A DNA stretch of 64,000 nt from contig OZ244148.1 of assembly GCA_965216255.1 (NCBI GenBank), positions 4,692,359 to 4,756,358 of the forward strand, in the 5' to 3' direction. The notes under the pieces are model-generated. The model was not told the origin of the DNA. It made no database searches and saw nothing but the letters and a program-made list of their open reading frames with translations. The position numbers and the translations under genes were made by a program. Origin of the DNA: Rhodothermales bacterium. GTDB taxonomy: Bacteria > Bacteroidota > Rhodothermia > Rhodothermales > Bin80. Below are positions 1 through 16,335 of this stretch, piece by piece; within the stretch, counting starts at the first letter, position 1, and each line of letters begins with the position of its first letter.

Positions 1-1073
1 ACCTACAGGTAATTCATGAAGAGACACCTATACCCTCCGCAGTCAACAAGCTAGTTCAGGCGTTAAATGTCTTGAACTCTGCCTTGGTAGAGTTGGCCGA
101 CACTATGGGGGCAGGGATTCCGGGGCCGTTTTGGTGTGGCTCAAGCGAAATTCTGGATGGTAGACAACTCAAGCGGGTTTACCCAACAACAGCCGGAGAC
201 GAGGAGTTTTTGAATAGGGCGACCCTGATGTCAGCGCTGGTTCTAGAAGGGTTAGACTCCAAATCGCTACGAGGGCTACTCCGAGCTTGGGGTGAAAATC
301 TTCATTACAAGAGCTTCCGAAAGAACAAAGGCCAGTCTCTGGGTTCCCGTCAGCTCTTGGAACGAGTAGCGCTCATCGCCATCCTTGTCGAACACTTGCA
401 GCCGCCGAAATCGGAGTTGCCCGTGCTACTGAAACAAGCAGAAGGCCGGATTGACAGTGGAGATGCCGCTGATCTGCTGACTGAACCCGTGCTGTTACGT
501 CAACAAATACGAAAAGAAACGGCGCCGCTGGCCAAGCTATATGATCTTCGAACTCACGGCGGGATAGCTCATGTACCCGATACAGAGAAGATTGATCATG
601 CCATGGCTGAGCTCGGCTTGCCCGAGAGGAATTGGCATCGGACTCATTATCTGACCCTTACTGAACTTGTTGCCAAGAGCTTAAGACTAGTACACGCTCA
701 CCTAATTCAAGCCAGTCATATCCTGCTGATCACCGCTTACGGCACGCGAGCCTTCTCGGTCACAGCTGAGACGAACCCACACGAACGAATGCGGCGTATC
801 GCGGCCTTCAAAGCAGATGGCGAAGAATCCCTTGTATTTTGCAACTTCGGCGTGCTAACCACTGGTTTTGACGCCCCGCAAATTACATGTGCGCTCATCG
901 CGCGACCAACGGCTTCCCTGGTCCTCTACAGCCAGATGGTGGGCCGCGCCATTCGGGGACCGCGTGCCGGAGGGACTTCAGAGGCCCTCATCGTCACGGT
1001 CATCGATCAGAACCTACCCGGCTTCCGTAGCGCGGCAGAGGCCTTCACTAACTGGGAAGACGTATGGAACTAG
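1..1073 (+). CDS. SF2 (DEAD/DEAH-like) helicase, 3' part only; gene starts upstream of the window
   Basis: The frame of the listed 72..1073 ORF stays open back to nt 3 with no stop, so the TTG at 72 is not the true start. RecA2 motifs are present: motif V VLTTGFDAP and motif VI YSQMVGRAIRGP. The stop (1071-1073) overlaps the ATG (1064) of the next gene. Confidence 0.75.
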   Translation, partial: LQVIHEETPIPSAVNKLVQALNVLNSALVELADTMGAGIPGPFWCGSSEILDGRQLKRVYPTTAGDEEFLNRATLMSALVLEGLDSKSLRGLLRAWGENLHYKSFRKNKGQSLGSRQLLERVALIAILVEHLQPPKSELPVLLKQAEGRIDSGDAADLLTEPVLLRQQIRKETAPLAKLYDLRTHGGIAHVPDTEKIDHAMAELGLPERNWHRTHYLTLTELVAKSLRLVHAHLIQASHILLITAYGTRAFSVTAETNPHERMRRIAAFKADGEESLVFCNFGVLTTGFDAPQITCALIARPTASLVLYSQMVGRAIRGPRAGGTSEALIVTVIDQNLPGFRSAAEAFTNWEDVWN

Positions 1074-2461
1074 CCACTACAAACAACCTGGCGCACGAGC
1101 ACGACATCGTTCCGCCGCACCTCGCCGTACAAGCTATGCGAGACAATGGTTACAAGAACGCGGCGTATGCCCTCGCAGAACTCATAGATAACGCCATTCA
1201 GGCGAAGGCAACGGTCATTGAACTTCTGTGCGCTGAGCGGCGGGAGGTGGTAATGGCCAGGGAACGGGCGCGCGTCGATCAGGTGGCTGTTCTCGATAAC
1301 GGAGAGGGAATGGATGCCGACGTTCTCCGGATGGCACTGCAATTCGGCAACGGCACGCACCTCACCCCGGAGGAACAGAAGGGAATCGGCAAGTTTGGAA
1401 TGGGACTACCAAGCTCGTCCATCTCGCAGTGCAAGCGAGTCGACGTGTGGTCCTGGCAGGATGGCGTTAGTAGCGCTCTGCACTCCTATATCGACATTGA
1501 TGAAATCAAGAAGCGGACGCTGCGAAGTGTGCCCGAGCCAGAGCCACAGAACATTCCCGCGCTCTGGCGTGAGGCAGGGGGAACGTTTGGCGAGAGCGGG
1601 ACGCTGATCGTGTGGTCACGGCTCGACCGCATTCTTTGGAAGACGGCTCGGGCTTTCATTCGAAATTCGGAGAATCTCGTCGGCCGGTTATATCGAAAAT
1701 TCCTCACGGGTAGTAGTGTTCATGGGCCGGTCCGCATCCGCATGGCCGCCTTCAACATGGAAGACCCTTCGATTACAACCATCGAAGAGATAGCCCGTCC
1801 GAATGATCCAAGCTATCTCATCGCTGATACCTCCTGTCCGGAGCCGTTTGATAAGACGCCAATGTTTGAGAACTACGGTATCCCCATCGAACGCGAGATT
1901 CAGCGAGGTGACAAGACGCATCGTGTGTGCGTAACGTTCTCAATGTCGACCGAGGACGCACGAAGCCTGCCAAACGCAGGCGGCCTCCCACATGGGAAGC
2001 ACGCGGCGAACAACGTGGGCGTCTCTGTTGTCCGGGCCGGGCGCGAGCTTGAACTCAATAGCTCTTGGACGATCCAATACGACCCACGCGAGCGGTGGTG
2101 GGGCGTGGAAGTAGCCTTCCCGCCTTCCCTTGATGACCTTTTTGGCGTATCCAATAACAAGCAGTCCGCGCGAAACTTCCATCAGATCGACTACGACGCC
2201 CTGCGAGAGCCCGGGGAAACCGATACGCAGATGCTCGACAGACTAATGGAAGAAGAGCATCCGTTGGAACCCGTACTTCGTCTCTCCCACGACATCGAAA
2301 GCCGGCTGCGCGTTATCCGGGGGCTCATAAAGGTGCAGCGTGCGGGTGAAAGGGAAAAGCGGCGGCGGCACCAAGGGAACCACGACGCAGAGCGTATAGC
2401 AACAGAGAAGACGAGGGAGCGCCAGCCCAAGTTTACCATTGTGCTTCATAACATGTTGTAA
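1064..2461 (+). pseudogene. GHKL (MORC/HATPase_c_3-like) ATPase, 5' part, interrupted by an IS element
   Basis: Bergerat-fold motifs are present: N-box ELIDNAIQA, G1 LDNGEGMD, G2 GKFGMGLPSS. The ORF terminates at 2461 where IS1634-family sequence begins. The probable 3' continuation is at 4546..5070. Confidence 0.7.
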
Positions 2462-4550
2462 AGTATAGACTTGAAAATTGTTCTGGCACAACAAATAGCC
2501 ACCAAGTGAGGTTTTATGCCTTAGGTCATATGATCGTCTTGTGCATGGCCAAGGGCAGTGGATCGATGCACAAGGCATCGTAAATGGCCCTTAGTTCCAT
2601 ATCCGGCTGCGAGCTGGTGCGGACATGGAGTGTCCGTGCGTCCTTGCGCTCGAAGATGCTGGTCGTGCGAACCTGACGCCGAAGGATCCTCCTGAGTGTC
2701 GTCCAGCTGAAGCGTAGTCCTTTCTGGCGCAGACGCGTACGAATCACCTGCACCAACTGGTAAGCCAGGACCGTGATGAATAGATGGCCCTCCGCGCGCC
2801 GGCCTGTGGAATGATAGATCGGTCGCAGTCCGAGTTCCGACTTCAGGGACCGGAACACCGCTTCCAGATCGGTCAGCATCACATACGTGCGCCAGAGCTC
2901 TTCCGCGGTGAACTCCATCTCGTTGCTGCGCAGGCAATAGACGCCCGGATCGGTCATCAACGCGGGTGCTTTCGGCGTCTTTGTCCACGTGATGGACTGG
3001 GCCCGCTTGCCGTCCTCATCCGTCTCCACTTCTATCTCGTAATGCTGTCCGATGCCGCTGAAGCTCTGCTTCAATCGGCCGATACGTTCCCTTATGAGGT
3101 CGATGCGCTTTTGCGTCTTCGGCAGGGCAAGCCCCTCGGAAAGCTTGCCGAGGGCCTCCTCGAATCTTTCCGCTTTCTGCTTCACCTTGGCCTCTTCCAT
3201 CGCCATGCGGGACCGGGATCGGCAACAGAGCCGCACCTCGTCGTCTGCCTCCTCCCGGTACACCTCGACGTCACTGCCCGAGGCCGTCTGAAGAGCCTCG
3301 GCCTGCTGCTCATCAAAATGCTTCCTGCGCTCTCTTGATACCACGATGTAGCGGTAGCCCTCCTCTCGCAGCCAGTCTATGCGGTCCTGTGTGGCAATGC
3401 CCCGATCCATCACCACACGTGCGTTCTTGGGCGTCTCCAGGGACTCCAGCATCTCCTTGAGCGTGGACGCTTCGTTTACGTTGCCCTTGAAGACTTGGCT
3501 ACGACGCACGAACCCGCTGCCGCGCGTTACAAGAGCCAGCGTGAGCAGCACGCAGTCACTGCGACGCTCCTTCGAGCGTCCGTACTTGGCCTTGTCGATG
3601 CTCTTGCCACTGCCTTCCAGGAAGCTGCCCTTCAGATCATAGAGCGCGATCGTGGGCTCCAGATCAAACAGGTCCAGCGCCCGTGCAAAGAGGTGGTCCT
3701 CTATGGCCTTGCGGTGTTTGTGCAGCATGTCGCTGGCCCGGTACAGCTGCATGTCGGCCATCTTCTCGAAGTTGCAGCCCAGAAACTCGTCCAGGCCACT
3801 GGCAGAGGCCAGCCAACGCTTCGTGGCATGTTCGCTGGCCGGCTCGGCCAGACGGCCTATGATGGAGCCCGTGGCTGCATGCCGGAGGCCTCGTGTGATG
3901 CCAAGCTTCTCGAAGAGCTCATCCATGCCCAACTGCTCCATGGCCCAGAGCCCCACATGTTCTACGCCCACCGTGCGGGGCCGGACCGTTTTGAGCGAGT
4001 GGACATCCACATGGTGCCATTCGCGCGGCGGCGTCTCGCCCTTGCCCTCGGTCACGGCTACCGCCTTGCGCGCACTCAAAAGTTCTGCAATGCGGTGGGC
4101 CTCCTCTTCCACGCGACGGCAGCAACGCCCATGGGTACGAGTTCGAGCTGGCCCTTGAGCAGTGCCTCAATCCGGTTGCAGAGCGCACGCCAGTAGCGTT
4201 TGTCGATGCGGAAGTGGGCACCGAGATTGAGCAGGGTCTTCTGCCGGACCTTGCCCTCTATGCGTTCGCCGTGGCAGAGCCGAAAGGAATAGTAGCGTGT
4301 AGCGTTGTCGGTGGTATGGGTAAGCGATCGTCGGATATACATAGGGGGAAGATAGGGTTGGGAACCACTGCCCGCAATAGCCATCCATATTTTATGGCAC
4401 AACATTCGTATTTCAGTTTCTGTGAATCTCAAAAATGGTGCGTTGGTGGGAGCTTGTGGGGCTCTGGTGGGGCCAAGCACCATAAATTCCGACAAAACAG
4501 GCCTAAAGTGGGGACTCATCCCTAAAAAGCTCTCGAAATAATTAACTGCG
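2440..4550 (-). mobile_element. IS1634-family insertion sequence (boundaries approximate)
   Basis: It contains a DDE transposase with typical IS1634 blocks: YIRRS..RYYSFRL..GKVRQKTLLNLG, YDL..FLEG, GRSKERRSDC, VVMDRGIAT, FRSLKSELGLRPIYH. It sits between the two halves of the GHKL gene. I could not identify terminal inverted repeats or a target duplication by eye. Confidence 0.7.
2526..4342 (-). pseudogene. IS1634-family transposase carrying one frameshift near 4100-4125
   Basis: The N-terminal part (from MYIRRSLTHT at 4342, inside ORF 4076..4519) and the main body (ORF 2526..4112) are in different frames and overlap at about 4076-4112. Confidence 0.65.
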
Positions 4551-5070
4551 ATTATTGCCGACCTTCAAATTCAGCCGCCAAATGGTAAAGATGGGCCAGG
4601 AGGAAGGACACGCGGGAGAAAGCGACGAGCAGGAAGAGAAGGAATCAGGAGAGCGCGTTAAGGAGATCCGTGACGAACTTGTTCGAACCGGGATATCTGC
4701 AAAGGCAGCCGAGGATCTCGCCGTAAAGACGGTCTATGATGGGCTCAAATATATGTTCATCCCGGTCGACATGGAGGGCGAAGCGTTCTTTTCGGTCAGG
4801 CCCAAGGGAGGCTCTATGATCGTTCACCTGAACATCAACCATACTGCCTATTCGAAGCTAGTAGAACTGCTTGAAGGGGAGACAGATGATGCTTCGAGCG
4901 AGGAATTGAAGGATCGCCTCCGACGGGCGCGCGAGGGCCTCCGTCTCCTCTTATTCGCTTGGGCTCGCTACGAGGACGAGCAGCTAGGCAAGAAGAGCCG
5001 TGAGTGGGCACAGATGACTCGGACGGACTGGGGACGCATTGCCCGGCGTTTCCTCGACTATGATGAATAG
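4546..5070 (+). pseudogene. Probable 3' part of the interrupted GHKL ATPase gene
   Basis: The frame is open from 4546, immediately after the IS. The product is acidic and helical (..MIVHLNINHTAYSKLVELLEG..) with no independent start context. Its stop at 5068-5070 is 3 nt before the GTG of the PLD gene. Assigning it as the C-terminus of the GHKL protein is an inference. Confidence 0.45.
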
Positions 5071-5073
5071 GCC

Positions 5074-6066
5074 GTGCATCTCGTAACCCTTCACGCAGCA
5101 GACCTCGGCGACTGCCTGTGCAATGTGGCCGCGGGAGCCCGCGAGGTTATTCTCGTGGCACCTTTCGTCAAACGGGTTGCGCTCCGCCGTCTCCTTGACG
5201 CGGTCCCCACGACAGCACGCGTACGCTGCGTCACGCGCTGGCGACTGGAGGAGGTTCTCGCTGGCGTGAGCGATCTCGATGTCTGGACCCTGCTCACCGA
5301 GCGAAGTGGCTCGCTTGCCCTCCTCCCCCACCTGCACGCGAAGTATTACCGCTTTGACGACGTCGCCTTTGTAGGCTCAGCCAACATCACTGCCACAGCC
5401 CTCGATTGGCGTTCACAGGCAAATTTGGAGTTGCTTATCGAGATGCTTCCCACCGCGGAACTCCTAGCTTTTGAAGCTGCTGTGCAGAGGCAGGCGACTT
5501 CAGTTGACATGGCCATGTATCAGCACATGCAAGTGCTTGTTGATGCACTCCGCCCACAGGAGACAACGCTTGGTAGGGTGCCTGAAGTAGAAAAGGGCAA
5601 AAACATAAATACGAAGAGAGAGGCAACGGACTCAGCATTCGGGGAGAAGGACGCGGTTGGCCTCTGGTTGCCGAAATCGAGAACGCCTCAGGCGCTTTAT
5701 GAATTCTATCGCGGCGCTGATGACCTTCTCACGCGAGGGGCCAGGGAGGCTGCCGCTCTTGACCTTGCAGCCTTTCCACTTCCTCCTGGTCTGGAGGAAA
5801 AAGCATTCAACACGTACGTAGGGTGGTACCTCATACAAACGCCCGTCGTGCGTCGCATCGATGCTTTCGTGGCAGAACCACAGCGGTTCGGAGCCGTCCG
5901 GACGCTCCTTCAGCGAATGGAGGACTACCCGGATCGCCGGGATACTGCACGTGACTGGCAATCGCTTATGAGATGGCTTCTTTACTTTCTGCCAGGTCAT
6001 TACCAGGCATGGGAAGCGAAATACTCGGAGATCTTTGTCCGAGTTACGAATTGCATAATCCGATGA
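5074..6066 (+). CDS. Phospholipase D-family (single HKD motif) nuclease-like protein
   Basis: A canonical HxK(x)4D(x)6GSxN motif is present: HLHAKYYRFDDVAFVGSANIT. It is the only HKD copy, as in Nuc/BfiI-type dimeric nucleases. GTG start. Confidence 0.75.
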   Translation: MHLVTLHAADLGDCLCNVAAGAREVILVAPFVKRVALRRLLDAVPTTARVRCVTRWRLEEVLAGVSDLDVWTLLTERSGSLALLPHLHAKYYRFDDVAFVGSANITATALDWRSQANLELLIEMLPTAELLAFEAAVQRQATSVDMAMYQHMQVLVDALRPQETTLGRVPEVEKGKNINTKREATDSAFGEKDAVGLWLPKSRTPQALYEFYRGADDLLTRGAREAAALDLAAFPLPPGLEEKAFNTYVGWYLIQTPVVRRIDAFVAEPQRFGAVRTLLQRMEDYPDRRDTARDWQSLMRWLLYFLPGHYQAWEAKYSEIFVRVTNCIIR

Positions 6067-6194
6067 AATCGTCCACCCTGACCGTTGTGAGTCGACTGGG
6101 GTTGGTTAACCTGAAATCTCCTTGTTGTATAACTCATTTTATGAGATCATGATGGACTATAGCCAATATTTACCAGGAGTAGTGAAGGATATGC

Positions 6195-6660
6195 CTAATA
6201 ATATGATGCTGTAGATGACCCCATGTTAAAGAAGATCTTACCCGCGGAAGGCGCTTTACTGGGTACAGTCGCTACCGAATCTTCACTCTCAGCAATTCGA
6301 AGACGCGGGCCTGGAGGGCGATCATGTCTCCAAGCATCGTGAAGGAGACGCCCTTCTTGCCGATCAGGGGCTCTACCTGAGCCCTCATAGCGTGCACAGA
6401 TGCGCCATGAGGGCGGCAAAGCTAAATGCCTTGTGCCGCGTCCGTTTGGAACGGGCTTTCTGCTCTGCCGAGGGCGAACGCCCTGCCGCATGGATGATAC
6501 TACGACGAGCAGCCTTCTTGCCTTCCAGGTCATCTTCGGCAAAGAGTATCGGAGCCAAACGCTGTTTCATGGTAACCCGACTTCGTGTGCGCGGTGATAA
6601 GGCGCACGCGAAGTCAGGCCAAGTGGGGTCCATGATATCCGCGGGGAGCAGCACCGATTA
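6195..6660 (-). mobile_element. Remnant (3' end only) of a second IS1634-like element
   Basis: It encodes HMKQRLAPILFAEDDLEGKKAAR.. and, after frame changes, ..IALQARVFELLRVKIR. It is clearly alignable at DNA level with 57290-57520 plus 59313-59425. No transposase body is present. Confidence 0.6.
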
Positions 6661-6782
6661 TAGGGATCCGTTGGGTGTGTTTGCGACGGTGCCCGTTTGC
6701 CCTTGAGGTCGAGTCTCGGCAGAACCATTTCCGGGCATTCCTGTTGCGCATCGTTTGCCTTTCACAATTGAATTCGAATTAG

Positions 6783-9554
6783 ATGGGATCAAGTCAAGGC
6801 GCTGAGGGAATGTCGTTGCAGAACTGGATCGGAGCCCGGTGGTGGAAATGCGATCTTCACACGCATACACCTGCATCCTGCGACTTCGGTAAGGGCCTGA
6901 GTCAAGCAACACTTAGCCAGTGTACGCCGCGTGAGTGGCTGCTTGTCTACATGCGCGCGGGTATCGACTGCGTGGCCGTCACGGACCACGACGGCGGCGA
7001 TTGGATCGATCTTCTACAGGATGCCCTAGCCGTACTCGAGCGTGATAAACCTGCGGATTTTCGGCCGCTGTATCTGTTCCCCGGTGTCGAGATTTCAGTT
7101 CATGGAGACGTGCACCTACTTGCTATTTTTCCAACGGAAACGAACCAGTCAGACATAGACAGACTGCTCGGCGCAGTTGGTTTTACGGCAGGCAGCACAG
7201 TGACGACAAAGCCCTTCGAGAAGGTCGTTAAAGAAATTGTGAATGCGAAAGGCATTGCCATTCCAGCGCACGCTGACAAAGAAAAGGGCCTCTTGCAGAA
7301 GAGCCCGGGCCCAACGCTGGAGCAGGCGTTGGGCTGCGATAAAATATTTGCAATGGAAATCGTGGATTCCGATTTTGAAAAGCCACAACTCTACCGCGAC
7401 AAGAAACTGAAGTGGACCGAAATTCTAGGTTCCGACTCCCACCATCTTTCCGGCCAACCGGGGGGCCGCTTTCCTGGGAGCCGCTTCACTTGGGTGAAGA
7501 TGGGCTCACCCAATCTTGATGGACTGCAGCTTGCTCTGCTCGACGGCGCTCTCTCAGTGCGCCGTTCCGACAAGCATCCCGACACGCCGAACCGACACGC
7601 CGAGTGGGTTTTGGAGTCCATCGAGGTAATCAATACTAAATACATGGGCCGGGAGAGTCCATTCGTTGTACCACTCAACCCATGGTTGAATGCCATCGTC
7701 GGTGGACGCGGCACCGGAAAATCTTCCCTGATAGAGTTCCTAAGGATTGCGTTGCGCCGCCAGGGCGAGCTGCCGGACGAGTTGACGCCGGAGTTTGAGA
7801 AATATGCCGACGTCTGTCGGACTCGGGGCGGCAGTGGATTGCTAACCGTTGGGACGAAGGTTCGCGTGATCTATTCGAAAAGCGAATCGAAATTCCGCAT
7901 CCAGTGGGACCCGGATGGCAGCTCAAATGCGATCGAACAGAAGACGGAGGACGGAGGGTGGTCGCAGGCGGAGGGCGATGTTATTCACCGCTTTCCGGTT
8001 CGAATGTACAGCCAGAAACAGATCTTTCACCTGGCTAAGGCACCTAGTGCACTTCTTAGCATCGTGGACGATGCATCAGACGTGGATCACCAATCTTGGA
8101 GCAGCCGCTGGCGGAAGGAGGAGAATCGCTTTCTTTCTTTACGGTTGAGGACTCGGGAAGTCGAGGCTGAACTGAAGAAAAAGAATCGGCTAGGAGGTGA
8201 ACTTGAGGACGTGAAACGGAAGCTGGCGATCTTTGAGAAGAGTGGTCATGCCGATGTTCTGCGTTCGTACCAATATCACCGGCGTCAACAGCGAGTAATC
8301 GAGAATTGGCAGGTACAGTGGGCCCACGCGGGCGAACGAGTTCGGCAGGCGGGGACGAATTTCGTTCCGGATACTCTTGGAGTCGCCTATATCGATGCCG
8401 AGGCTAAGGCAGACTCGTCACTCTTGAAAAATGCCCAAACCGTTCGGGAACGCCTTGAAGCAATTCGGCAGCAACTGGAGCAGATCGCAATAGAAGCGGA
8501 CAACACGCTCGCCGAGTGGAGGGCGACGCTGGAGCAATCGGCTTGGAGACAGGCGGCCAATTCGGCTAATGATGCCTATGAGTCTCTGTCGGAGCAGTTG
8601 GCGGAGGAAGGGGTCAGTGATCCGAAGGACTACGGCTCACACATGCAACGCCGACAACTCATTGAGCAGGAGTTGGACGAGTTGGAGAGTCAAGAAAAGG
8701 AAATGGAGAGCTTAAGGGTCCAGGCAGATGACAGCCGCATGCAGTTACTTAAGATCCGCCAAGAGCTGACCAAGACCCGTCGCTCGTTCCTGGAAGGTGT
8801 GCTGATGGACAACCCCTACGTGCGTATTCAAGTCGTACCATACGGAGAACAAGAGACAGTCGAGACTGAGTTCCGCCGCCTGATCCAGAGGGATGATGAA
8901 AGCTTCGAGAAGGACATTCGATCACTCTTGGAGCCGCTCGAAAGGTTCCAGAAAAAGAAAAACAGCGCAACACAAATCGAAAAGGAGCTGGAAAAAATAA
9001 AGCAAGGGGTCCGTGCGATCGTTGAAGGCTCTGACCGCCCCGTAGATATGCGCTTCAAGTCTCATCTTAGCAAGTTGCAACCGGAGGTGTTCGATCGCCT
9101 CGACACATGGTTTCCCCAAGATTCCTTGGATGTCCAATACAGTCCGAAGGGCGACGGCGGAAACCTTCAACCTATCAGTGCGGGCTCGCCGGGTCAGAAG
9201 ACTGCGGCGCTCTTGGCATTCCTGCTCTCCTACGGTCGTGAACCACTAGTTCTGGATCAGCCGGAAGATGACCTCGACAACCGATTGATCCACGAATTGA
9301 TCGTTAAGCAGATCCGCGAGGAGAAGCAGAAGCGGCAAATAATTGTGGTAACGCACAATCCGAACATTGTGGTCAACGGCGATGCCGAGCTCGTTGTCGC
9401 GCTCGCCGCCAAGAATGGCAGGACACAAAAAGAGTGTGTAGGTAGTCTTCAGGAAAGGAAAGTGCGGGAAACCATCTGCACAATTATGGAGGGAGGTCTG
9501 GAAGCATTCAAGGAGCGGTATAACCGCATCACGATGAGAGTATCTGATGTCTGA
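6783..9554 (+). CDS. PHP-domain phosphoesterase fused to an ABC/SMC(Rad50/SbcC/RecF)-like ATPase
   Basis: PHP motifs: WWKCDLHTHTP, AVTDHD, HLLAIF, IPAHAD, GSDSHH. ATPase motifs: Walker A GGRGTGKSS, a long charged heptad-like middle segment, signature-like SAGSPGQKTA, Walker B LVLDQPEDDLD, H-loop VVTHNPN. Confidence 0.8.
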   Translation: MGSSQGAEGMSLQNWIGARWWKCDLHTHTPASCDFGKGLSQATLSQCTPREWLLVYMRAGIDCVAVTDHDGGDWIDLLQDALAVLERDKPADFRPLYLFPGVEISVHGDVHLLAIFPTETNQSDIDRLLGAVGFTAGSTVTTKPFEKVVKEIVNAKGIAIPAHADKEKGLLQKSPGPTLEQALGCDKIFAMEIVDSDFEKPQLYRDKKLKWTEILGSDSHHLSGQPGGRFPGSRFTWVKMGSPNLDGLQLALLDGALSVRRSDKHPDTPNRHAEWVLESIEVINTKYMGRESPFVVPLNPWLNAIVGGRGTGKSSLIEFLRIALRRQGELPDELTPEFEKYADVCRTRGGSGLLTVGTKVRVIYSKSESKFRIQWDPDGSSNAIEQKTEDGGWSQAEGDVIHRFPVRMYSQKQIFHLAKAPSALLSIVDDASDVDHQSWSSRWRKEENRFLSLRLRTREVEAELKKKNRLGGELEDVKRKLAIFEKSGHADVLRSYQYHRRQQRVIENWQVQWAHAGERVRQAGTNFVPDTLGVAYIDAEAKADSSLLKNAQTVRERLEAIRQQLEQIAIEADNTLAEWRATLEQSAWRQAANSANDAYESLSEQLAEEGVSDPKDYGSHMQRRQLIEQELDELESQEKEMESLRVQADDSRMQLLKIRQELTKTRRSFLEGVLMDNPYVRIQVVPYGEQETVETEFRRLIQRDDESFEKDIRSLLEPLERFQKKKNSATQIEKELEKIKQGVRAIVEGSDRPVDMRFKSHLSKLQPEVFDRLDTWFPQDSLDVQYSPKGDGGNLQPISAGSPGQKTAALLAFLLSYGREPLVLDQPEDDLDNRLIHELIVKQIREEKQKRQIIVVTHNPNIVVNGDAELVVALAAKNGRTQKECVGSLQERKVRETICTIMEGGLEAFKERYNRITMRVSDV

Positions 9555-10785
9555 CAGCCCGAAAGAGCTACTCCGCAGGATACAGCTGGGCGAAGATAGC
9601 TTGCTCGAACTCAAGGAAGTCACGTTCCAAGGAGACAATGTATCGGGACCCCGTCGACATGCGCTGGCTGACGAACTTGCTGCCTTCGCCAACACGCGCG
9701 GCGGTGTTCTTGTGCTAGGTGTCGAGAACACAACGCGGGACATCGTTGGAATCCCGATCGATCGACTCGACACGGTCGAACAGTTCGTATTCGAAATCTG
9801 CAACGAGAACATCGAACCGCCGCTGCCCTTCCTATCTTTCCGGACGGAGCTACCCAATGCGGTCGGGGAACTGCGACCTCTGCTCAAGGTGGAAATTCCG
9901 CGTGGCCTTTTCGTTTACAGGAGTCCTGGGGGTTACTTTCACCGGCAGGGAAGTTCGAAACGCCAGATGCCTACTGAGCTCCTTCTGCGCCTCGGGCAGC
10001 AGCGAGGCCAAGTGCGCCCGTACCGATACGAGGAACAGCCGGTGCCTCGGACGACTTTCGCCGACCTCGAGCTAGATCGGCGGCAGCGATTCGCGAGGGC
10101 TGGTGCCGACGACCTTGTTACTTTCAAGAAAATGAAGCTCGCGACGGAGGACGAGTCAGGGAAAACACGCGCTACCGTCGCTGGCATCCTGCTGTGCTCG
10201 TCGAGCCCGCAGCAGTGGCTCCCCAGTGCATTTATTCAAGCGGTATGCTACCAAGGCATTCGTCAGGATTCAAACTACCAACTCGATGCGCAAGCGGTCA
10301 CCGGACCTGTGGATGAGCAGGTTGCGGCGGCGATGATATTCGTCCGGCGGAATATGAAAGTGGCCGCCCGCAAGACTCCTGGTCGCGAGGACATCCCGCA
10401 ATTCAGTCTGCGCGCGGTCTTTGAGGCGATCGTGAACGCGGTGGCACACCGCGATTATGCCGTTTATGGGTCGAAGATCCGACTGTTCCTTTTCGCGGAT
10501 CGACTAGAACTCTACTCGCCTGGTCCGCTGCCGAACTCTGTCACCGTCGACTCACTAGCGCTCCGGCAATCGACCCGCAATGAATTGCTGACGACGCTGT
10601 TGATGAAGTGTCAGGTGGAGGATCCAACGGGTGAGATAGACCGGCAATTCTTGATGGAGAAGCGAGGAGACGGCGTGCCCATCATATTGCGCGAGAGTCT
10701 GGAGCTATCCGGCCAGCGGCCGGAGTACCGGATAATTGACGATGCGGAGGTACTGCTCACGATTTACGCAGCGGGGCAAACGTGA
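9547..10785 (+). CDS. AlbA_2 (Schlafen-core, divergent AAA) domain protein with HATPase_c_4-like C-terminal region
   Basis: N-terminal GEDSLLELKEV and FANTRGGVLVLGVEN are typical of AlbA_2. The C-terminal IVNAVAHRDY..IRLFLFADRLELYSPG is typical of the associated HATPase_c_4-like module. The ATG at 9547 overlaps the upstream stop (9552-9554). Confidence 0.7.
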   Translation: MSDSPKELLRRIQLGEDSLLELKEVTFQGDNVSGPRRHALADELAAFANTRGGVLVLGVENTTRDIVGIPIDRLDTVEQFVFEICNENIEPPLPFLSFRTELPNAVGELRPLLKVEIPRGLFVYRSPGGYFHRQGSSKRQMPTELLLRLGQQRGQVRPYRYEEQPVPRTTFADLELDRRQRFARAGADDLVTFKKMKLATEDESGKTRATVAGILLCSSSPQQWLPSAFIQAVCYQGIRQDSNYQLDAQAVTGPVDEQVAAAMIFVRRNMKVAARKTPGREDIPQFSLRAVFEAIVNAVAHRDYAVYGSKIRLFLFADRLELYSPGPLPNSVTVDSLALRQSTRNELLTTLLMKCQVEDPTGEIDRQFLMEKRGDGVPIILRESLELSGQRPEYRIIDDAEVLLTIYAAGQT

Positions 10786-10822
10786 TAGGCGAAGACCCTG
10801 TGCGTATTCAAAGCAGTGGGAC

Positions 10823-11402
10823 TTATGTATTTATCGTCACATGTGCCAACAGCCCCGGCTCCGGCATCCCCTTATCAATCAGACGGGGCGGCAGCTCTGC
10901 CATGATCACGCCTCTGGCCTCATTGGCGGGGTCCACGTACTTGGGACGCTCACGCCGGATCACCTTCAGCTTGGCTGCCTCGTAATCCAGCGTCTCTGTC
11001 ACCTCCTTGCCGATTGAGAAGCGCCGTGCCTTCTTCCGGCTTGATGACAATCACCTCGCGCCGCAGATGTGCAGGCAACACCTGGCGTACAGCAGCCCGC
11101 TTCGCAGCAGGCAGCCTTTGCTTTAGCGTGATGGTCTCGGTCTGCGGCAAAGGCGCCACACACTCCGCCTTTTCAAACAACGCCGCTTGCTGCGTGTCCA
11201 GCTCCGGCACAAACCGTTCGCTCCTGGCACCAAAGACCAGACGCCGGAGTTCGGCCAACTGGAACTCAAGCTCCGCCAACCGCAGACATTGACCGGCGGT
11301 CTCCTGACGTAACCGGCTGTTTTCCTCGCGCAGGCCTACCAGCTCCTCGCTGGGCAATTCAATCGTCGCGGAAGAGGTGGGGGGGGGGGCGGTGGCCTGC
11401 AT
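10823..11402 (-). pseudogene. IS66 transposase TnpC, N-terminal third, frameshifted and truncated
   Basis: ORF 10950..11402 carries the leucine-zipper-like N-terminus (..LAELRRLVFGARSERF..). ORF 10823..11050 (..LDYEAAKLKVIRRERPKYV..PGLLAHV) is in a different frame. The rest of the protein is missing. Confidence 0.7.
11379..11389. repeat. Homopolymeric G11 (C11 on the coding strand) tract at codons 5-8 of IS66 tnpC
   Basis: Counted directly: g at 11379-11389, encoding the PPP(T) run of MQATAPPPTS. Confidence 0.9.
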
Positions 11403-11465
11403 GATGATTCAACAGATCATGCAAGCATAAAGTCACGTTTTCTTAGATAGTCATTTGCCTACTCC

Positions 11466-11801
11466 TTAGCCCCTCACCACATAGCGGCGCCGGTATTTGA
11501 GAGACCTTAGCGAAATCCCCTCCAGTAGCAGCACCATCTGTGCCCACATCGGTTTGTCGCTCTTAAGCGGCTCGAACGTGCACGCTTCCAGCCGTATGTA
11601 GAAAAGGGCAAAGCCGCTCCTATCCCATATCAGCAGCTTTAGGTGCGTCCTTCTTCGGTTTACAAAGACGAAGACATCACCCGACATCGGGTCCTTCCCC
11701 GGGCCCGAGTGCACCAGAGCGCACAGGCCGTCAAAGCTCTTGCGCATGTCGGTGGGCTTGCGCTGCAGATAGTACCGGTGAGAAGGCCCCAGCCCGATCA
11801 T
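11466..11801 (-). CDS. tnpB: IS66 Orf2 (TnpB)
   Basis: Diagnostic sequence: YYLQRKPTDMRKSFDGLCALV...VFVFVNRRRTHLKLLIWDRSGF. Confidence 0.85.
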   Translation of the reverse strand: MIGLGPSHRYYLQRKPTDMRKSFDGLCALVHSGPGKDPMSGDVFVFVNRRRTHLKLLIWDRSGFALFYIRLEACTFEPLKSDKPMWAQMVLLLEGISLRSLKYRRRYVVRG

Positions 11802-11856
11802 GGCTTAGCCAGTGTTGCCAAGAACGAGGAGGATACCGGTACGAAGAAGCGCAGCC

Positions 11857-12096
11857 TCACCCCGCTCGGATACACCACCTCCGCCTGTGCCTGCCCTCGC
11901 AGAGCAGGGGCCCTAACTCCACGAAGGCTGCGCCTTCGGATGCAGCGGCCTTCTTACCATACTTGTGTCGCCAGTAAGACAGCTGCGAACGGCAGATTCC
12001 GTGCTCGGCACAAAAGGCCTCCGCTGTCTGGCTCCCTTTCAGGTACTGTTCTACCAGCGGATCCATTTCTTCCGCCGTGCCGTTAGGCTTGCGCAT
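11857..12096 (-). CDS. tnpA: IS66 Orf1 (TnpA, HTH protein)
   Basis: ..QYLKGSQTAEAFCAEHGICRSQLSYWRHKYGKK is typical of IS66/IS3-type HTH orfA proteins. It lies immediately upstream of tnpB. Confidence 0.7.
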   Translation of the reverse strand: MRKPNGTAEEMDPLVEQYLKGSQTAEAFCAEHGICRSQLSYWRHKYGKKAAASEGAAFVELGPLLCEGRHRRRWCIRAG

Positions 12097-12245
12097 GCGT
12101 CGTGGGCTTTGATCCTCGGGTCAGGCAACAATCTCCTGACCAGCCCTTCACCCACGCAAGGTGTGCTTCACGGGATGCTTGCAGCGTCTTGCCGCCGCGC
12201 CTCCAGGTCGAACTTGAAGAGCATAGCCCGCTGCACTGTTTGATA

Positions 12246-12746
12246 TTAGGCGGCCGGCACATTCGTTGACCTATCCATGGCATGGCGCGCGTGGGCTACT
12301 AGGATGGCTGGTTTGTGTGCTGCAATTTCAGCGCCTGGTGTGAGTCGAATGGTGTGCGCAAATTGGACGGGTTTGAGGGCCGGATCATCGTGGATGCGAA
12401 AATCGGCTTCAGCTTCATCGCCAACTGCCGGTTGGCCTTCGGTAGAGATAACCTCTTCGATTCGAACCACCTTGCGCACGCGGATGAGACGCTGGGCCAG
12501 GAGAATGCACGCGTGGGCGTGGCGCCCGTGGATTACAATGGCCGCGCCTGCGTGTTTCGCTTTATGGCGGGCCTCATCCAGTCTGCCCATCGCGGTCTGA
12601 GCTTGCCGCTTGCGGCGAGACTCTGAGCGGGCTTCCGGGTTTTCCGGAGGTCTGCTTGCTTTCTCGGACGCCTGCGCTATAGCCAGCGACAGAGGAATGA
12701 ACGTGCCCTGCACTATACTTTCCAGGCTTGCACCGCGTAATTTCAA
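12246..12746 (-). CDS. Hypothetical ORF, no motif recognised
   Basis: This is only an open frame of 166 codons between the IS66 remnant and the protease gene. Its 5' end overlaps the leader of the + strand gene, so it may be spurious. Confidence 0.15.
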   Translation of the reverse strand: MKLRGASLESIVQGTFIPLSLAIAQASEKASRPPENPEARSESRRKRQAQTAMGRLDEARHKAKHAGAAIVIHGRHAHACILLAQRLIRVRKVVRIEEVISTEGQPAVGDEAEADFRIHDDPALKPVQFAHTIRLTPGAEIAAHKPAILVAHARHAMDRSTNVPAA

Positions 12747-12777
12747 TCATCGGAATGCAACCAACCGGAGTCAAACC

Positions 12778-15700
12778 ATGCTAACGCGTAACGCTCTGGG
12801 CAGCCATGTGGCAGGCTTCATGGCAGTAATGTTGTTGGCGTCGGCAGCTTCGGCGCGCGCGCAGGATTGGGCCGCGTGGGACGTATCTCAAGCGAACGCG
12901 AGACCGGGTCGTGTTTGGGTTCAGTTTGTGGAGGGAACGCCCATAGTGGCCGGAGCGGCAAAGACCGGTCTTGACGTGTTTGATCGTGAGGGGGCCAAGG
13001 CTGGCGTGTACGAGATCAGCCAGGCATTCCCGTTTCTGGATGCTATAGCCAAGAAACGGGCGCTCTCTGCAGAGGCGCAGCAATTGCGGCGCATTTACTA
13101 CGTCCGGTATGATGAAATCCACGATCCTAGAACCGTTGCATCCGCCTTGTCCCGCGATCCGCGCGTGGTATACGTGGAGCCGGATTACATGCGGCGTCCG
13201 ATGTGGGATCTGGAGGACGTGCCAGCGTATCCCGCAAGCCCGCCGGAAGTCCCCAATGATCCGCTATTCTCCGATGCTCCGTACATGCAACGCTATCAGC
13301 TTCCTGATGCGTGGGGCATGGTGAAGGGCGAAGAAGGTGCCGTGGTGATAGCCATTGCGGACGTAGGGACGGACTGGAGACACCCGGACCTCGTAAACAA
13401 TGTGTGGACCAATTCCGGGGAGATCCCGGACAACGGCATCGACGACGATGGTAACGGCTTTGTAGACGACGTACACGGCTGGAATTTTTCGACCAATTCG
13501 CCGGTTGCCCCGGGCAGACCCACTGGCAGTTCCCGTCACGGTACGGCTGTTGCAGGAGCGGCCGCTGCCGAAGCGAACAACGGCACGGGGATGGCCGGCA
13601 CCAGCTGGAATGCACGGTTCATGCCGCTCAATGTGGGTTGTAGCCCGGCTTCGCCAGTGTGCAGCTATTGGGCGGGTACCCTGTATGCGGCGACAAACGG
13701 GGCCGATATCGTAACGGCCAGTTACGGGGGACCGGGGTATTCGGTAACGGAGCGGCAAACCTTAGAGGCTGCAGTGGCGGAAGGTGCGTTGATCGTAGCC
13801 TCGGCCGGAAACACTTCTACGGACAATGATCTTTTTCCATTTTACCCTGCATCGCATACCATCACACTCAGCGCTGGAGGTACTCGGTCTCAGGATGACG
13901 TGAATTTCTATAACTATGGCCGAAGCGTGAACGTGTTTGCTGCGGGAAGGGATGTGGTCGTGACGCGGCCGGACGCCGAATACGGGCATGTGTTTGGTAC
14001 GTCTTTTTCCGCGCCGCTTGTCGCCGGCATTGCCGCGCTCGTGAAGGCCGCATATCCGCACTATACGCCGCTCCAAGTTCGGGAGCGAGTTAGACTTACG
14101 GCCGACAATATTGACGACGCCAACGATGCTGCCCTGGCGGGTCTACTAGGTCGCGGGCGTGCAAATGCGTACCGAGCCGTGACGGAGAGCGGATTCCCGG
14201 CCATTCGAATGACGGATGTCAAAGTTGCAGGCTTTTATCGTGAACGAAGGAGTGGGGATATCGTTGAGCTCACGGCAACATTTACCAACTATCTTGCTGA
14301 CGCCGAAAACCTGTCAATTGGCTGGTTTTCGGACGCCCCCTTTGTGCAAATTAATTCCGGAAGTACGCAAATAGGTGCAATGCGGCAGTGGGAAAGCCGC
14401 GCGGCCAGCCTGTCATTTCGTCTTTCTGATGACGCCCCCTATCGGAGGCGCTTTACCGTTTCACCTCGTGCGATATCTGGGAGCTACGAAGATGCGTCGG
14501 ATGTGGTGCGATTTCTGGTCAACCAAGGTTCAGTTGCTACCCATCACACGGGCGGGCTGGCGTTTACCATCACCACAGAAGGCAATTTCGGCTACCTCGA
14601 CAGACGCCACAGTTTGTCCGCCCTGGGCTCGGGCGTCCAGGTCTTCGATGCCGGCGGCAACAGGCGCAGCATCCTATTCGAAGGCGGCTTGCTGGTTGCT
14701 ACCGGCCCGGATGCCGTGTCGGACTGCCTTTACGAAGATCGGCGAAGAGCCGAAAATATCGTGCAGGATACGGATTTTGTACCGTTGCCGGGCTCAGGAT
14801 TGCGAATTAGGACCCCTGGAACGACTACGGCCCAGGAAGGCCAGGTTGCGTTAACCGATGCAGGTGCCTCCAACCCCATCGGGATAGAAATCGTGCAGGA
14901 AAGCTTCATGGAAACGGGAGCTGCGTACGAGGACATGGTAATACTACGGTATACGTTCACCAATCCGACACAACGTGACCTGACCGATATGCATGTAGGT
15001 CTTTACCTCCACTGGACGATGAACTATTCTCCAGCAAGTGACCATGTGCGTTTCGAGGCGAGCAGGAATTTGGGTATCCAGCAGGATAGGCTCGAAAACC
15101 CGAGGCTGGTGGCCGGAGCCATGCCGCTTACCACTGGTCTTCCGGTGCATTACGCGGCCCTGGATCTGGAAAACCAGCCTTTTACAAGCCAGTCCAAATG
15201 GTCGTGGCTAACGGGCGGGCTCCGAAATCCTGGGACGGAAGCGAAAAACTGGGCACAAGTTATCGGACTCGGCCCGTTTTCCATGAGTCCAGGAGAAGTC
15301 ACCGAGATTGCCTTTGCGGTTGCCACAGGAAGCAGCAGTGCAGACTTCATTCAAAATGTAGACAGTGCACAAGTCTTGTGGGAAGCACTCAAGAAGCCTG
15401 CGATGGCGCAATATATACAGAATGTGAATGGTCGGGACGTGGATATTTACATAGATGACGAACTCCATTTCGACGACTGGGCTTTCCAGTCCGCTTCGGC
15501 ATTCGAGAGACTGGAGGACGGTGAGCACACTATTGACATTGTTGCCAGCGCAAGTCCGGATAATGCAGAGCCAATTGCCACGCGCACGTTCGGCGCCGAT
15601 AGTGGCACGGCCCAACACGTCTTCGTTCACGGCAACGAGACTAACCTGAGTATCGCGGTAGTCGACGCCGTGCGCACACGTGAATTGGGAAGTGACAGGA

Positions 15701-16335
15701 TGAGCTTTTACGTCGTTCACGGGGCGGCAGATCTGGGATCTCTAAGTATTGACTTGCAGCACCCGGATAACAATGAAACAGTGCTCCTGGAAAATGCTGT
15801 GTACGGAGATGCGAGTACGTATTTAACCGTGCAACCTGGTACATATGGACTGGAGGTCCGTACATCGCCGGATGATCGACTGGTCAATCTCTTCGAATTC
15901 GATCTTTCGGCACTGGCCAGGCACGCTTTCGTGCTGTGCCTTTCCGGCGCAGGTGTTTCCGCTCTAGATGGACTAACAGTCTTGGGTGTACAGTCAGACG
16001 GATCCACCTTCTTTCCGACTAATGTAACGACGTCGGAAGCTGTAGCCGAAGTGCCGACTAGCTTCGCGCTCAAGGGCAACTACCCAAATCCATTTAGTTC
16101 GTCTACCACTGTTTCGTTCGATTTGCCGTTCGCGGCCGCCGTATCGGTCAAGGTCTTCGACTTGATGGGCCGCGCAGTGCTAAGCGTTCCTCCCGTGACA
16201 ATGCAACTGGGTGCAAATAAGTCTTTTTCATTGAACGGCACAGCCCTCGCAAGCGGCACGTATCACTATCGCGTTACCGCAGCCAATGACGAGGAGTCAG
16301 TTGTTCAAACAGGTCATATGACGATATTGCGGTAA
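12778..16335 (+). CDS. Secreted S8 (subtilisin-family) serine peptidase with T9SS C-terminal sorting domain
   Basis: Start moved to the ATG at 12778, giving signal peptide MLTRNALGSHVAGFMAVMLLASAASARA. There is an I9-like propeptide. Catalytic triad contexts: IAIADVGTD (Asp), SRHGTAVAG (His), GTSFSAPLVAG (Ser), plus AGN. The C-terminus FALKGNYPNPFSSSTTVSFDL...YHYRV is T9SS type-A CTD-like. Confidence 0.85.
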   Translation: MLTRNALGSHVAGFMAVMLLASAASARAQDWAAWDVSQANARPGRVWVQFVEGTPIVAGAAKTGLDVFDREGAKAGVYEISQAFPFLDAIAKKRALSAEAQQLRRIYYVRYDEIHDPRTVASALSRDPRVVYVEPDYMRRPMWDLEDVPAYPASPPEVPNDPLFSDAPYMQRYQLPDAWGMVKGEEGAVVIAIADVGTDWRHPDLVNNVWTNSGEIPDNGIDDDGNGFVDDVHGWNFSTNSPVAPGRPTGSSRHGTAVAGAAAAEANNGTGMAGTSWNARFMPLNVGCSPASPVCSYWAGTLYAATNGADIVTASYGGPGYSVTERQTLEAAVAEGALIVASAGNTSTDNDLFPFYPASHTITLSAGGTRSQDDVNFYNYGRSVNVFAAGRDVVVTRPDAEYGHVFGTSFSAPLVAGIAALVKAAYPHYTPLQVRERVRLTADNIDDANDAALAGLLGRGRANAYRAVTESGFPAIRMTDVKVAGFYRERRSGDIVELTATFTNYLADAENLSIGWFSDAPFVQINSGSTQIGAMRQWESRAASLSFRLSDDAPYRRRFTVSPRAISGSYEDASDVVRFLVNQGSVATHHTGGLAFTITTEGNFGYLDRRHSLSALGSGVQVFDAGGNRRSILFEGGLLVATGPDAVSDCLYEDRRRAENIVQDTDFVPLPGSGLRIRTPGTTTAQEGQVALTDAGASNPIGIEIVQESFMETGAAYEDMVILRYTFTNPTQRDLTDMHVGLYLHWTMNYSPASDHVRFEASRNLGIQQDRLENPRLVAGAMPLTTGLPVHYAALDLENQPFTSQSKWSWLTGGLRNPGTEAKNWAQVIGLGPFSMSPGEVTEIAFAVATGSSSADFIQNVDSAQVLWEALKKPAMAQYIQNVNGRDVDIYIDDELHFDDWAFQSASAFERLEDGEHTIDIVASASPDNAEPIATRTFGADSGTAQHVFVHGNETNLSIAVVDAVRTRELGSDRMSFYVVHGAADLGSLSIDLQHPDNNETVLLENAVYGDASTYLTVQPGTYGLEVRTSPDDRLVNLFEFDLSALARHAFVLCLSGAGVSALDGLTVLGVQSDGSTFFPTNVTTSEAVAEVPTSFALKGNYPNPFSSSTTVSFDLPFAAAVSVKVFDLMGRAVLSVPPVTMQLGANKSFSLNGTALASGTYHYRVTAANDEESVVQTGHMTILR

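Follow-up and report, generated by a model that had tools for sequence, protein, structure and literature searches.

Do two overlapping genes, one for a PHP phosphoesterase fused to an SMC/Rad50-like ABC ATPase and the other for a Schlafen-GHKL protein, form a single defence system? The question is raised by a locus in a 64,000-nucleotide (nt) stretch of contig OZ244148.1 (assembly GCA_965216255.1, Rhodothermales bacterium), referred to below as the window; coordinates are positions in the window unless another locus is named. The pair had been put forward from the sequence alone as a candidate two-gene defence system. Profile searches, structure comparison and a survey of related loci place the large protein in the TrlF family beside the anti-phage protein Ppl and the small one beside TrlG of the Photorhabdus temperature restriction locus, and the pair is probably a Ppl-type defence cassette. 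The genes and their junction are as follows.

6783-9554, forward strand: trlF-like gene (PHP phosphoesterase plus SMC/Rad50-like ABC ATPase); open reading frame (ORF) of 923 residues, or 914 residues from ATG 6810
9547-10785, forward strand: trlG-like gene ("Schlatpase": Schlafen/AlbA_2 domain, middle domain, GHKL ATPase, C-terminal helix/strand element); ORF of 412 residues, with Pfam matches
9547-9554, forward strand: 8-nt overlap ATGTCTGA, in which the trlG start (ATG 9547) lies within the trlF stop (TGA 9552-9554)

Both ORFs and the overlap of ATG 9547 with TGA 9552-9554 were found where the sequence-only reading had placed them, and the domain composition that it had read from motifs, a PHP domain and an SMC-like ABC ATPase coupled to an AlbA_2/HATPase_c_4 protein, was recovered by profile searches and structure comparison. 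The overlap ATGTCTGA indicates translational coupling of trlF and trlG. The 923-residue ORF exists as first given, but its start was probably misplaced: GAGGGA lies 4 nt upstream of ATG 6810, whose M10 is also where the N-terminus of the family consensus aligns, so that ATG 6810 rather than the annotated ATG 6783 is the probable start of trlF.

The large protein and its relation to Ppl

The large protein scored 626.1 bits against the NCBIfam model NF045780 ("TrlF family AAA-like ATPase"; cut-off 350), residues 17-916 aligning with profile positions 2-943 of 944. The PADLOC model for Ppl (PDLC02208) was matched end to end at 1.2e-143 (residues 16-916 against 3-892 of 894). Genes annotated "ppl: anti-phage protein Ppl" were retrieved from plasmids by tblastn at about 30% identity over 98% of the length, and direct alignment to an annotated plasmid Ppl gave 31% identity over 846 aligned residues. 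By these alignments the large protein is related to anti-phage Ppl over its whole length; the sequence-only reading had raised Ppl as a lead. That reading had also named grouping with housekeeping RecN/SbcC-type repair proteins as an outcome that would tell against it; those housekeeping families were not matched, the recN model giving 21 bits against a cut-off of 407.85. The family is large, with at least 3905 clusters at 90% identity (E <= 1e-10) and at least 1186 clusters at 50% identity (E <= 1e-30).

The domains of the large protein were located as follows.

6831-7568, forward strand: PHP domain, residues 17-262; ligands H26, H28, D68/H69, E103, H111, H163, D218 and H220/H221
7605-8072, forward strand: ABC head, N-terminal half, residues 275-430; Walker A GGRGTGKS 307-314 and Q-loop Q411
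8088-8804, forward strand: antiparallel coiled-coil insert, residues 436-674, seen as helices in the AlphaFold2 (AF2) model
8820-9545, forward strand: ABC head, C-terminal half, residues 680-921; signature S802-PGQ805, Walker B LVLDQPEDD 822-830 and H-loop H858

Almost all of these PHP and ABC residues, among them Walker A G307-GRGTGK313-S314 and the Walker B acidic residues D825 and E828, were at least 97% conserved among 66 homologues, and the window copy has every one. The invariance of H221 was seen only within an alignment of 16 sequences, and D34 only in a five-sequence comparison, where it is D, or E in the plasmid pYR3 and IncC proteins described below. All of the compared PHP and ABC residues were common to the window protein and Ppl except Q413, which is Met in Ppl.

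Pfam searches of the large protein gave AAA_21 (residues 719-863) and weaker matches to SMC_N and AAA_15, and the NCBIfam search gave a CehA/McbA metallohydrolase domain match on the PHP part at 3e-8. In the AF2 model (predicted local distance difference test score, pLDDT, 77) a PHP barrel is followed by the ABC N-lobe, a coiled-coil hairpin of about 240 residues (helices 436-464, 466-486, 489-513, 542-584, 587-608 and 614-674) and the C-lobe of the head. With Foldseek the N-terminus was matched to the PHP phosphoesterase of PDB entry 2anu, and the ATPase part to JetC, Smc and Rad50, which ranked highest, and to RecN and LmuB; the PDB sequence search returned Smc and Rad50 heads for the C-terminal head half. 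No solved Ppl or TrlF structure was found by PDB sequence search or, with Foldseek, by fold.

The small protein

Two regions of the small protein were recognised.

9592-9969, forward strand: SLFN_AlbA_2 domain, residues 16-141 (Pfam PF04326, 4e-15)
10402-10740, forward strand: GHKL ATP-binding region, residues about 286-398; N-box E293-x3-N297, HRDY 301-304, SPG 324-326 and RGxG 373-376

Within the second, HATPase_c_4 (PF13749) was matched at residues 308-398 (2.2e-16). Across 54 syntenic orthologues the Schlafen residues E16, E21 and K23 were invariant, as were the GHKL residues E293, N297, H301-R-D-Y304, S324-P-G326 and R373-G-x-G376. The protein also matches the N-terminal part of the PADLOC Schlafen-pAgo model. 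Its AF2 model (pLDDT 79) was matched by Foldseek to 3lmm, an uncharacterised AlbA_2/HATPase_c_4 protein, to SLFN13, SLFN14, SLFN11, SLFN5 and SLFN12, and to PDK-type GHKL domains.

The combination of AlbA_2 with PF13749 has been named "Schlatpase" in the preprint of Kuzmenko et al. 2026 (bioRxiv 10.64898/2026.05.29.728809), in which such Schlafen-GHKL modules are ATP-driven transfer RNA ribonuclease (tRNase) effectors of abortive infection, a Schlafen-Argonaute being the example. Both domains lie in one chain in the window protein. It also has the E-x3-N N-box, whose E293 and N297 correspond to E314 and N318 of RzAgo, the residues that coordinate the ATP gamma-phosphate and Mg (bioRxiv 10.64898/2026.05.29.728809). 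The complete catalytic set of two Glu and one Asp was not found: E16 and E21 are there, and position 61 is Asn. By its domains and N-box the small protein is classed as a Schlatpase. A second characterised relative is Cash, a CRISPR-associated Schlafen that is a tRNase with catalytic E17/D22 (Nat Commun 2026, PMC13462974). Genes that combine a Schlafen domain with a minimal histidine kinase and a winged helix-turn-helix (wHTH) domain are BREX-linked in at least 1017 taxa, and the BREX survey that reports them treats them as backup suicide effectors, PHP being unmentioned (PMC12839542).

Conservation of the pairing

At least 532 relatives were confirmed in a scan of species-representative genomes, and the analysis went on with the best 80 loci (40-66% identity, many phyla); related loci are cited below by their L numbers. 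Pairing was counted over the 73 of these loci that had at least 1300 nt of downstream sequence. A TrlG homologue (41-79% identity) lay directly 3' on the same strand in 57 of the 73, which puts the trlF-trlG pairing far above chance. The 8-nt overlap was identical in 40 of the 57 paired loci and was replaced by an 11-nt overlap in 8, the remainder ranging from -17 to +5 nt. The synteny that the sequence-only reading had proposed as a check is thus present, and the paired loci span Acidobacteriota, Latescibacterota, Desulfobacterota, Myxococcota, Nitrospirota, Gammaproteobacteria and others.

The identities of TrlF and TrlG to the window pair co-vary (r = 0.83). On a rough neighbour-joining tree of TrlF, phyla are mixed and the distribution is patchy; the paired form occurs across the whole sample, and solo genes make up one main clade (Enterobacterales, spirochaetes and others) together with scattered losses. 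Gene order and an overlap persist at 22-27% identity, on IncC plasmids, on pYR3 and on Pseudomonas syringae plasmids, and among 48 plasmid matches to TrlG most overlap a TrlF-annotated gene.

The Photorhabdus temperature restriction locus and other known systems

A pair of this kind already has a name, so that the statement in the sequence-only reading that no named system joins a PHP-ATPase to an AlbA_2 partner does not hold. The "temperature restriction locus" (TRL) of Photorhabdus laumondii, described by Hapeshi et al. 2020 (10.1101/2020.06.02.129163, PMC7554251), consists of trlR, encoding a 79-residue helix-turn-helix (HTH) protein, trlF, annotated as a histidinol phosphatase, and trlG, with AlbA_2 at 14-128 and HATPase_c_4 at 298-365. 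The operon halts growth at 36 °C and its transcription is heat-induced; in about 30 heat-tolerant clones the mutations lay in trlG, none was found in the much larger (2.3-fold) trlF, and removal of the entire operon likewise restored growth (10.1101/2020.06.02.129163). Yersinia ruckeri plasmid pYR3 was named in the same work as a carrier of the operon (10.1101/2020.06.02.129163). The pYR3 locus encodes a 79-residue HTH_73 protein, an 875-residue TrlF and a 382-residue AlbA_2 plus HATPase_c_4 protein whose gene overlaps the end of trlF.

The window resembles the TRL operon in having trlF followed by trlG (AlbA_2 plus HATPase_c_4) on the same strand and in the same order with overlapping ends, and its large protein passes NCBI's TrlF family model, which is named after that operon. 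Identity to pYR3 is 27% for TrlG (E 2e-34); for TrlF it is 22-24% overall to the pYR3 and IncC proteins, rising to 39% against pYR3 in the C-terminal head. Unlike the TRL operon, the window trlF has no upstream gene for the 79-residue HTH regulator: no ORF suitable for a small trlR-like regulator was present in 6066-6783, and no conserved upstream ORF family was found among the 80 related loci. The window TrlF also differs in its full set of PHP metal ligands, which is degenerate in the pYR3 and IncC proteins. The pair is accordingly placed, by alignment and gene content, as a distant member of the TRL operon kind with a large protein closer to Ppl and no trlR, that is, a divergent further example of a pairing already named.

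In the TrlF of pYR3 (L092 3386-6013) and of the IncC plasmid (L090 3365-6007), N stands for D68 and K-Q/C for H220-H221, so that PHP activity may be missing from the founding TrlF.

Ppl is reportedly a single-gene anti-phage system that came from the 2020 screen of Gao et al., and the primary study of its mechanism is said to be that of Xu et al. (Mol Cell, 2026). A review describes Ppl as a 3'-5' exonuclease of single-stranded DNA that is inhibited by nucleoside triphosphates (NTPs) bound at its PHP and NTPase domains and switched on by NTP depletion and 3'-OH ends (PMC12904381). The window TrlF has the same full-length architecture, PHP plus an ABC/SMC-like NTPase with a coiled-coil insert, and the same PHP ligands, Walker A and B, signature and H-loop residues; mobility and plasmid and defence-type contexts are also common to both. 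The window trlF departs from the single-gene definition of Ppl in its coupled Schlafen-GHKL gene downstream. A bona fide Ppl on an IncF plasmid was solo, with no downstream partner.

Three further systems share parts of this plan. With Schlafen-pAgo and Cash the window TrlG has in common the AlbA_2 plus PF13749 supradomain, the E-x4-E motif and the GHKL E-x3-N; unlike them it has no fused Argonaute, NACHT or Csx15 sensor, the candidate sensor being a separate Ppl-like protein, and the third catalytic Asp is Asn in the window lineage. Lamassu likewise pairs an SMC/Rad50-like ATPase, proposed as a DNA-end sensor, with a toxic effector perhaps kept inactive, and PADLOC LmuB matched the window TrlF partially (276-863, 5e-17) while Foldseek returned LmuACB structures. 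The window ATPase, in contrast, carries its own PHP nuclease domain and its partner is a Schlafen-GHKL protein; PADLOC found no LmuA or LmuC match among the scanned neighbours. SbcCD and Mre11-Rad50, to judge by the fold matches, also combine a metal-dependent phosphoesterase with a coiled-coil ABC ATPase acting at DNA ends, but the window phosphoesterase is PHP and not of the calcineurin-like Mre11 fold, the chain is a single fusion, the coiled coil is short, the family is patchy and mobile, and the RecN/SbcC models were not matched.

Genomic contexts of the relatives

In the 82% and 62% relatives (L084 and L087) the pair is flanked by housekeeping genes alone, and it therefore travels as a two-gene cassette. 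Two other loci (L088 and L089) have it within a BREX-like operon with DUF6079, a PglX-type methylase, TrlF, TrlG, an SNF2 helicase and PglZ. The arrangement recurs as follows.

L088 6640-19634 and L089 5835-18330, and also L007, L009, L017, L022, L035 and L039: TrlF with or without TrlG between the PglX-type methylase and the SNF2 helicase/PglZ

With a marker search of low sensitivity, BREX-type neighbours turned up beside at least 8 paired loci and 5 solo ones of the 80, and type I restriction-modification (R-M) neighbours beside 2. The pair of the IncC plasmids lies within a type I R-M operon in the order HTH, hsdR, TrlF, Schlafen-GHKL, hsdS, AAA ATPase, hsdM. Relatives were also found on conjugative plasmids. 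Solo relatives adjoin prophage tail genes in E. coli and, on Klebsiella IncF plasmids, a type II R-M system and recombinases; all seven relatives on viral contigs are solo. These contexts fit a defence gene and not a repair gene, and the defence surroundings that the sequence-only reading had asked for are seen in the BREX-like and R-M operons, on plasmids and in prophages.

The distant TrlF/Schlafen-GHKL pair of E. coli is carried by the IncC plasmid pNDM102337 (L090 122-11169), and IncC resistance plasmids are widespread.

Asn61 and selection in the window lineage

The catalytic sites of both proteins are intact apart from one residue of TrlG. Position 61 (codon AAC, 9727-9729) is Asn in the window and Asp in all 54 orthologues and in pYR3. 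In a profile alignment it falls on the second D of GVDD in SLFN13 and SLFN14, which we take, from the literature on SLFN13, to be the third Schlafen catalytic carboxylate. Because this Asp is Asn, the ribonuclease (RNase) of TrlG may be weakened in the window lineage, or the protein may have been repurposed.

Asn61 is common to the window and its two closest relatives (93% and 82% TrlF identity). Three other substitutions were noted in the window TrlG: H124Y and F161Y, found in the window copy only, at positions conserved in 54 of 54 and 53 of 54 orthologues respectively, and S120G, at a site conserved in 53-54 of 54. Among the three copies with Asn61 the ratio of nonsynonymous to synonymous substitution rates (dN/dS) was 0.20-0.25 for trlG and 0.30-0.43 for trlF, the value of trlF against the nearest relative being 0.43, and the copies are separated by a dS of about 0.25-0.33. 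Such ratios indicate purifying selection on both genes in this lineage. Since Asn61 is present in three copies and dN/dS is low, it would be an old variant under selection and not fresh decay.

Proposed mechanism

The reading that we favour, with moderate confidence, is that the window pair is a two-gene TrlF-TrlG defence cassette of the Ppl type. Its defence function, the biochemical activity of each protein and the coupling between them are proposed by analogy with characterised relatives; for a specific coupling of TrlF to TrlG our confidence is considerably less than for the defence cassette as such.

The cassette would be a mobile anti-phage or anti-plasmid module with two layers. For the first, Ppl is the guide: TrlF would dimerise through its ATPase heads and be held off by bound NTPs, and a drop in NTP pools together with free 3'-OH ends on DNA at infection would release its PHP site to degrade DNA in the 3'-5' direction. 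For the second, Schlafen-pAgo, Cash and the Photorhabdus genetics suggest that TrlG would oligomerise when its GHKL domain binds ATP and would then stop growth, which typical members would do by cleaving tRNA. The sequence-only reading had cast the PHP domain as effector or processing nuclease, the ATPase as sensor or clamp and the AlbA_2 protein as a nucleic-acid-binding or cleaving partner; this assignment is probably incomplete, since, judging by the Photorhabdus genetics and the Schlafen-GHKL studies, the AlbA_2 protein would be an RNase effector that arrests growth and not only a nucleic-acid binder.

The coupling that we prefer is one in which TrlF restrains TrlG until TrlF is engaged or destabilised, a sequestration like that of Lamassu. 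The tight translational coupling suggests a fixed TrlF:TrlG stoichiometry, and restraint would explain why heat-tolerant Photorhabdus mutations fell in trlG and never in trlF. It is preferred to activation because losses of an activator trlF should dominate among heat-tolerant clones, yet none was found. In its fullest form the proposal is that TrlF-TrlG is a widespread two-layer immune cassette in which a Ppl-type sensor and exonuclease, responsive to DNA ends and NTP levels, controls a Schlafen tRNase by restraint or by licensing, that Photorhabdus temperature restriction is heat-triggered autoimmunity, and that lineages with Asn61 are naturally disarmed; this is offered tentatively, as a possibility that falls short of probable.

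Several observations count against the defence cassette or the coupling within it. The NCBIfam equivalog model for Ppl (NF042955) was failed, with 583.8 bits against a cut-off of 1000, a cut-off also missed by all eight related TrlF proteins tried. Many TrlF relatives exist as solo genes, and comparison of paired with solo TrlF gave two discriminating positions, no patch and no TrlG-specific surface, which makes a stable dedicated TrlF-TrlG complex less likely. The window TrlG carries D61N throughout its lineage, with H124Y and F161Y in addition. The sole phenotype on record for a TrlF-TrlG pair is temperature restriction, phage being unmentioned (10.1101/2020.06.02.129163). Activation of the GHKL domain needs ATP and that of Ppl needs NTP loss, so that the two layers would answer to opposite nucleotide states. 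Finally, an insertion sequence (IS) interrupts the neighbouring GHKL HATPase_c_3 gene, and this particular island may therefore be decaying.

Alternative explanations

The two genes might be independent defence genes that travel together and are co-transcribed, TrlF acting alone and TrlG being autonomous with a sensor of its own. Solo TrlF and Ppl genes are common, Ppl works alone, residues do not tell paired from solo TrlF, most Schlatpases are small stand-alone proteins (bioRxiv 10.64898/2026.05.29.728809), and the Schlafen-histidine kinase-wHTH genes of BREX loci are described as add-on backup effectors (PMC12839542). Against such independence stand the adjacency of the partner in 57 of 73 loci across phyla with the identical 8-nt overlap in 40, the order and an overlap kept down to 22-27% identity, and the movement of the pair as a unit into housekeeping neighbourhoods, and we regard it as rather unlikely. 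The window copy might also be degenerating or disarmed, its effector nuclease inactivated and the pair surviving only as a remnant within an IS-ridden island, a reading that is compatible with the defence reading for the family as a whole. D61N, the further changes H124Y, F161Y and S120G at sites kept in 53-54 of 54 orthologues, the flanking IS fragments, the IS that interrupts the GHKL gene next door and the trlF dN/dS of 0.43 all speak for it; the full length of both ORFs, the intact PHP, ABC and GHKL catalytic residues and the age of Asn61 (three copies, dS about 0.25-0.33, trlG dN/dS 0.20-0.25), which is under selection, speak against it, and we hold it to be unlikely.

Homologues of TrlG are annotated "predicted HTH transcriptional regulator" or "putative DNA binding domain-containing protein", which raises the possibility that TrlG is a DNA-binding transcription regulator (COG2865-type) of trlF or of other genes, with TrlF the sole effector. 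The short C-terminal helix/strand element of the AF2 model, the terminal HTH reported for more than 90% of Schlatpases, and the purifying selection on trlG in a lineage that has nonetheless lost the catalytic Asp61 would all agree with this. An invariant E-x4-E-x-K and invariant GHKL ATP residues in 54 orthologues are unexpected for a mere repressor, however, regulators rarely sit downstream of and translationally coupled to their own target, and related Schlafen domains are proven tRNases; moreover, if loss of TrlG silenced trlF, heat-tolerant trlF mutants should also have arisen, and there were none (10.1101/2020.06.02.129163). A regulator is thus very unlikely. The least probable of the explanations considered is a physiological or housekeeping module outside immunity, either for DNA-end repair in the manner of SbcCD or RecN or as a thermosensing growth switch of the sort proposed in Photorhabdus. 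The one recorded phenotype, temperature restriction with heat-induced transcription (10.1101/2020.06.02.129163), and the fold resemblance of a phosphoesterase plus SMC-like ATPase to Mre11-Rad50/SbcCD would suit it. It accords poorly with the recN score (21 bits against 408), the patchy distribution and the mixing of phyla on the TrlF tree, the relatives on conjugative plasmids and viral contigs, the genes within BREX-like and type I R-M operons, and an anti-phage protein as the closest characterised homologue.

The defence cassette joins three lines of work, on anti-phage Ppl, on the Photorhabdus temperature-restriction operon and on Schlafen-GHKL tRNase modules. No paper uniting Ppl, Schlafen and phage was found in the searchable literature, from which the link between Ppl, TRL and Schlafen-GHKL proteins appears to be absent; the ABC-ATPase classification of Krishnan et al. 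2020, a source cited on Schlafen-linked systems, may have noted the association of PHP-ABC proteins with Schlafen before. Should the two genes work as one unit, a single coupled cassette, often nested in BREX or type I R-M operons, would combine a first line aimed at DNA with an abortive second line aimed at RNA. Were the proposal true, it would give a concrete mechanism for a trait that limits the host range of an insect pathogen, with a phage-defence module setting the thermal niche of a bacterium and keeping Photorhabdus laumondii out of warm-blooded hosts. For annotation, a gene 3' of TrlF labelled as an ATP-binding protein, RecG-like protein or HTH regulator becomes recognisable as its partner.

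Surroundings of the cassette

The neighbouring features of the window are listed below.

72-1073: C-terminus of a helicase, upstream of the pair
1064-2425 and 4597-5067: GHKL HATPase_c_3 gene in two pieces, matching residues 1-454 and 454-610 of the intact 610-residue protein of L083
2526-4112, reverse strand: DDE_Tnp_1 transposase gene between those two pieces
5074-6066: PLD-like protein, upstream of the pair
6331-6571, reverse strand: IS fragment upstream of the cassette, about 240 nt, 84% identity, inverted, to 57304-57528
10950-11402 and 11466-11801, reverse strand: IS66 remnants downstream of the cassette, an LZ_Tnp_IS66 fragment and TnpB_IS66

The window copy sits in an IS-rich island, and the IS debris that the sequence-only reading had noted on both sides of the pair was located at 6331-6571 and at 10950-11801. 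The upstream piece is taken for an IS fragment because its 84% match, 57304-57528, is the 3' end of a weak DDE_Tnp_1-like ORF at 56666-57544. The whole 700 nt upstream of trlF are 95% identical to the relative L083, whose large protein is the 93% match; L083 has the same island, with dndB- and dndC-like (PAPS_reduct) genes further upstream. No structured RNA was matched in Rfam at E <= 0.1 over 5500-12700, promoter and terminator matches showed no excess over shuffled expectation, and the repeat scan gave just short matches at chance level.

The helicase, GHKL ATPase and PLD-like genes form a triad that in L083 (1-9258) lies directly downstream of the dndB- and dndC-like genes; its counterpart in the window spans 72-6066, and the triad gave weak PADLOC matches to MzaB, DrmC and ZacB. 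The triad may be a separate defence module, phosphorothioation-linked or other. Its genes were considered as part of the TrlF-TrlG system and set aside, being present only in the nearest relative and absent from other loci with the pair.

The 1241-residue subtilase encoded at 12610-16335 was likewise rejected as a member of the system, being an S8 peptidase that is secreted and carries a type IX secretion system (T9SS) sorting tail, and being unlinked to the pair in other loci. It bears DUF4397 and the T9SS Por_Secre_tail sorting domain, and it is one of two paralogous large S8 subtilases, unrelated to the cassette, that share about 50% identity, the other lying at about 20978-24403.

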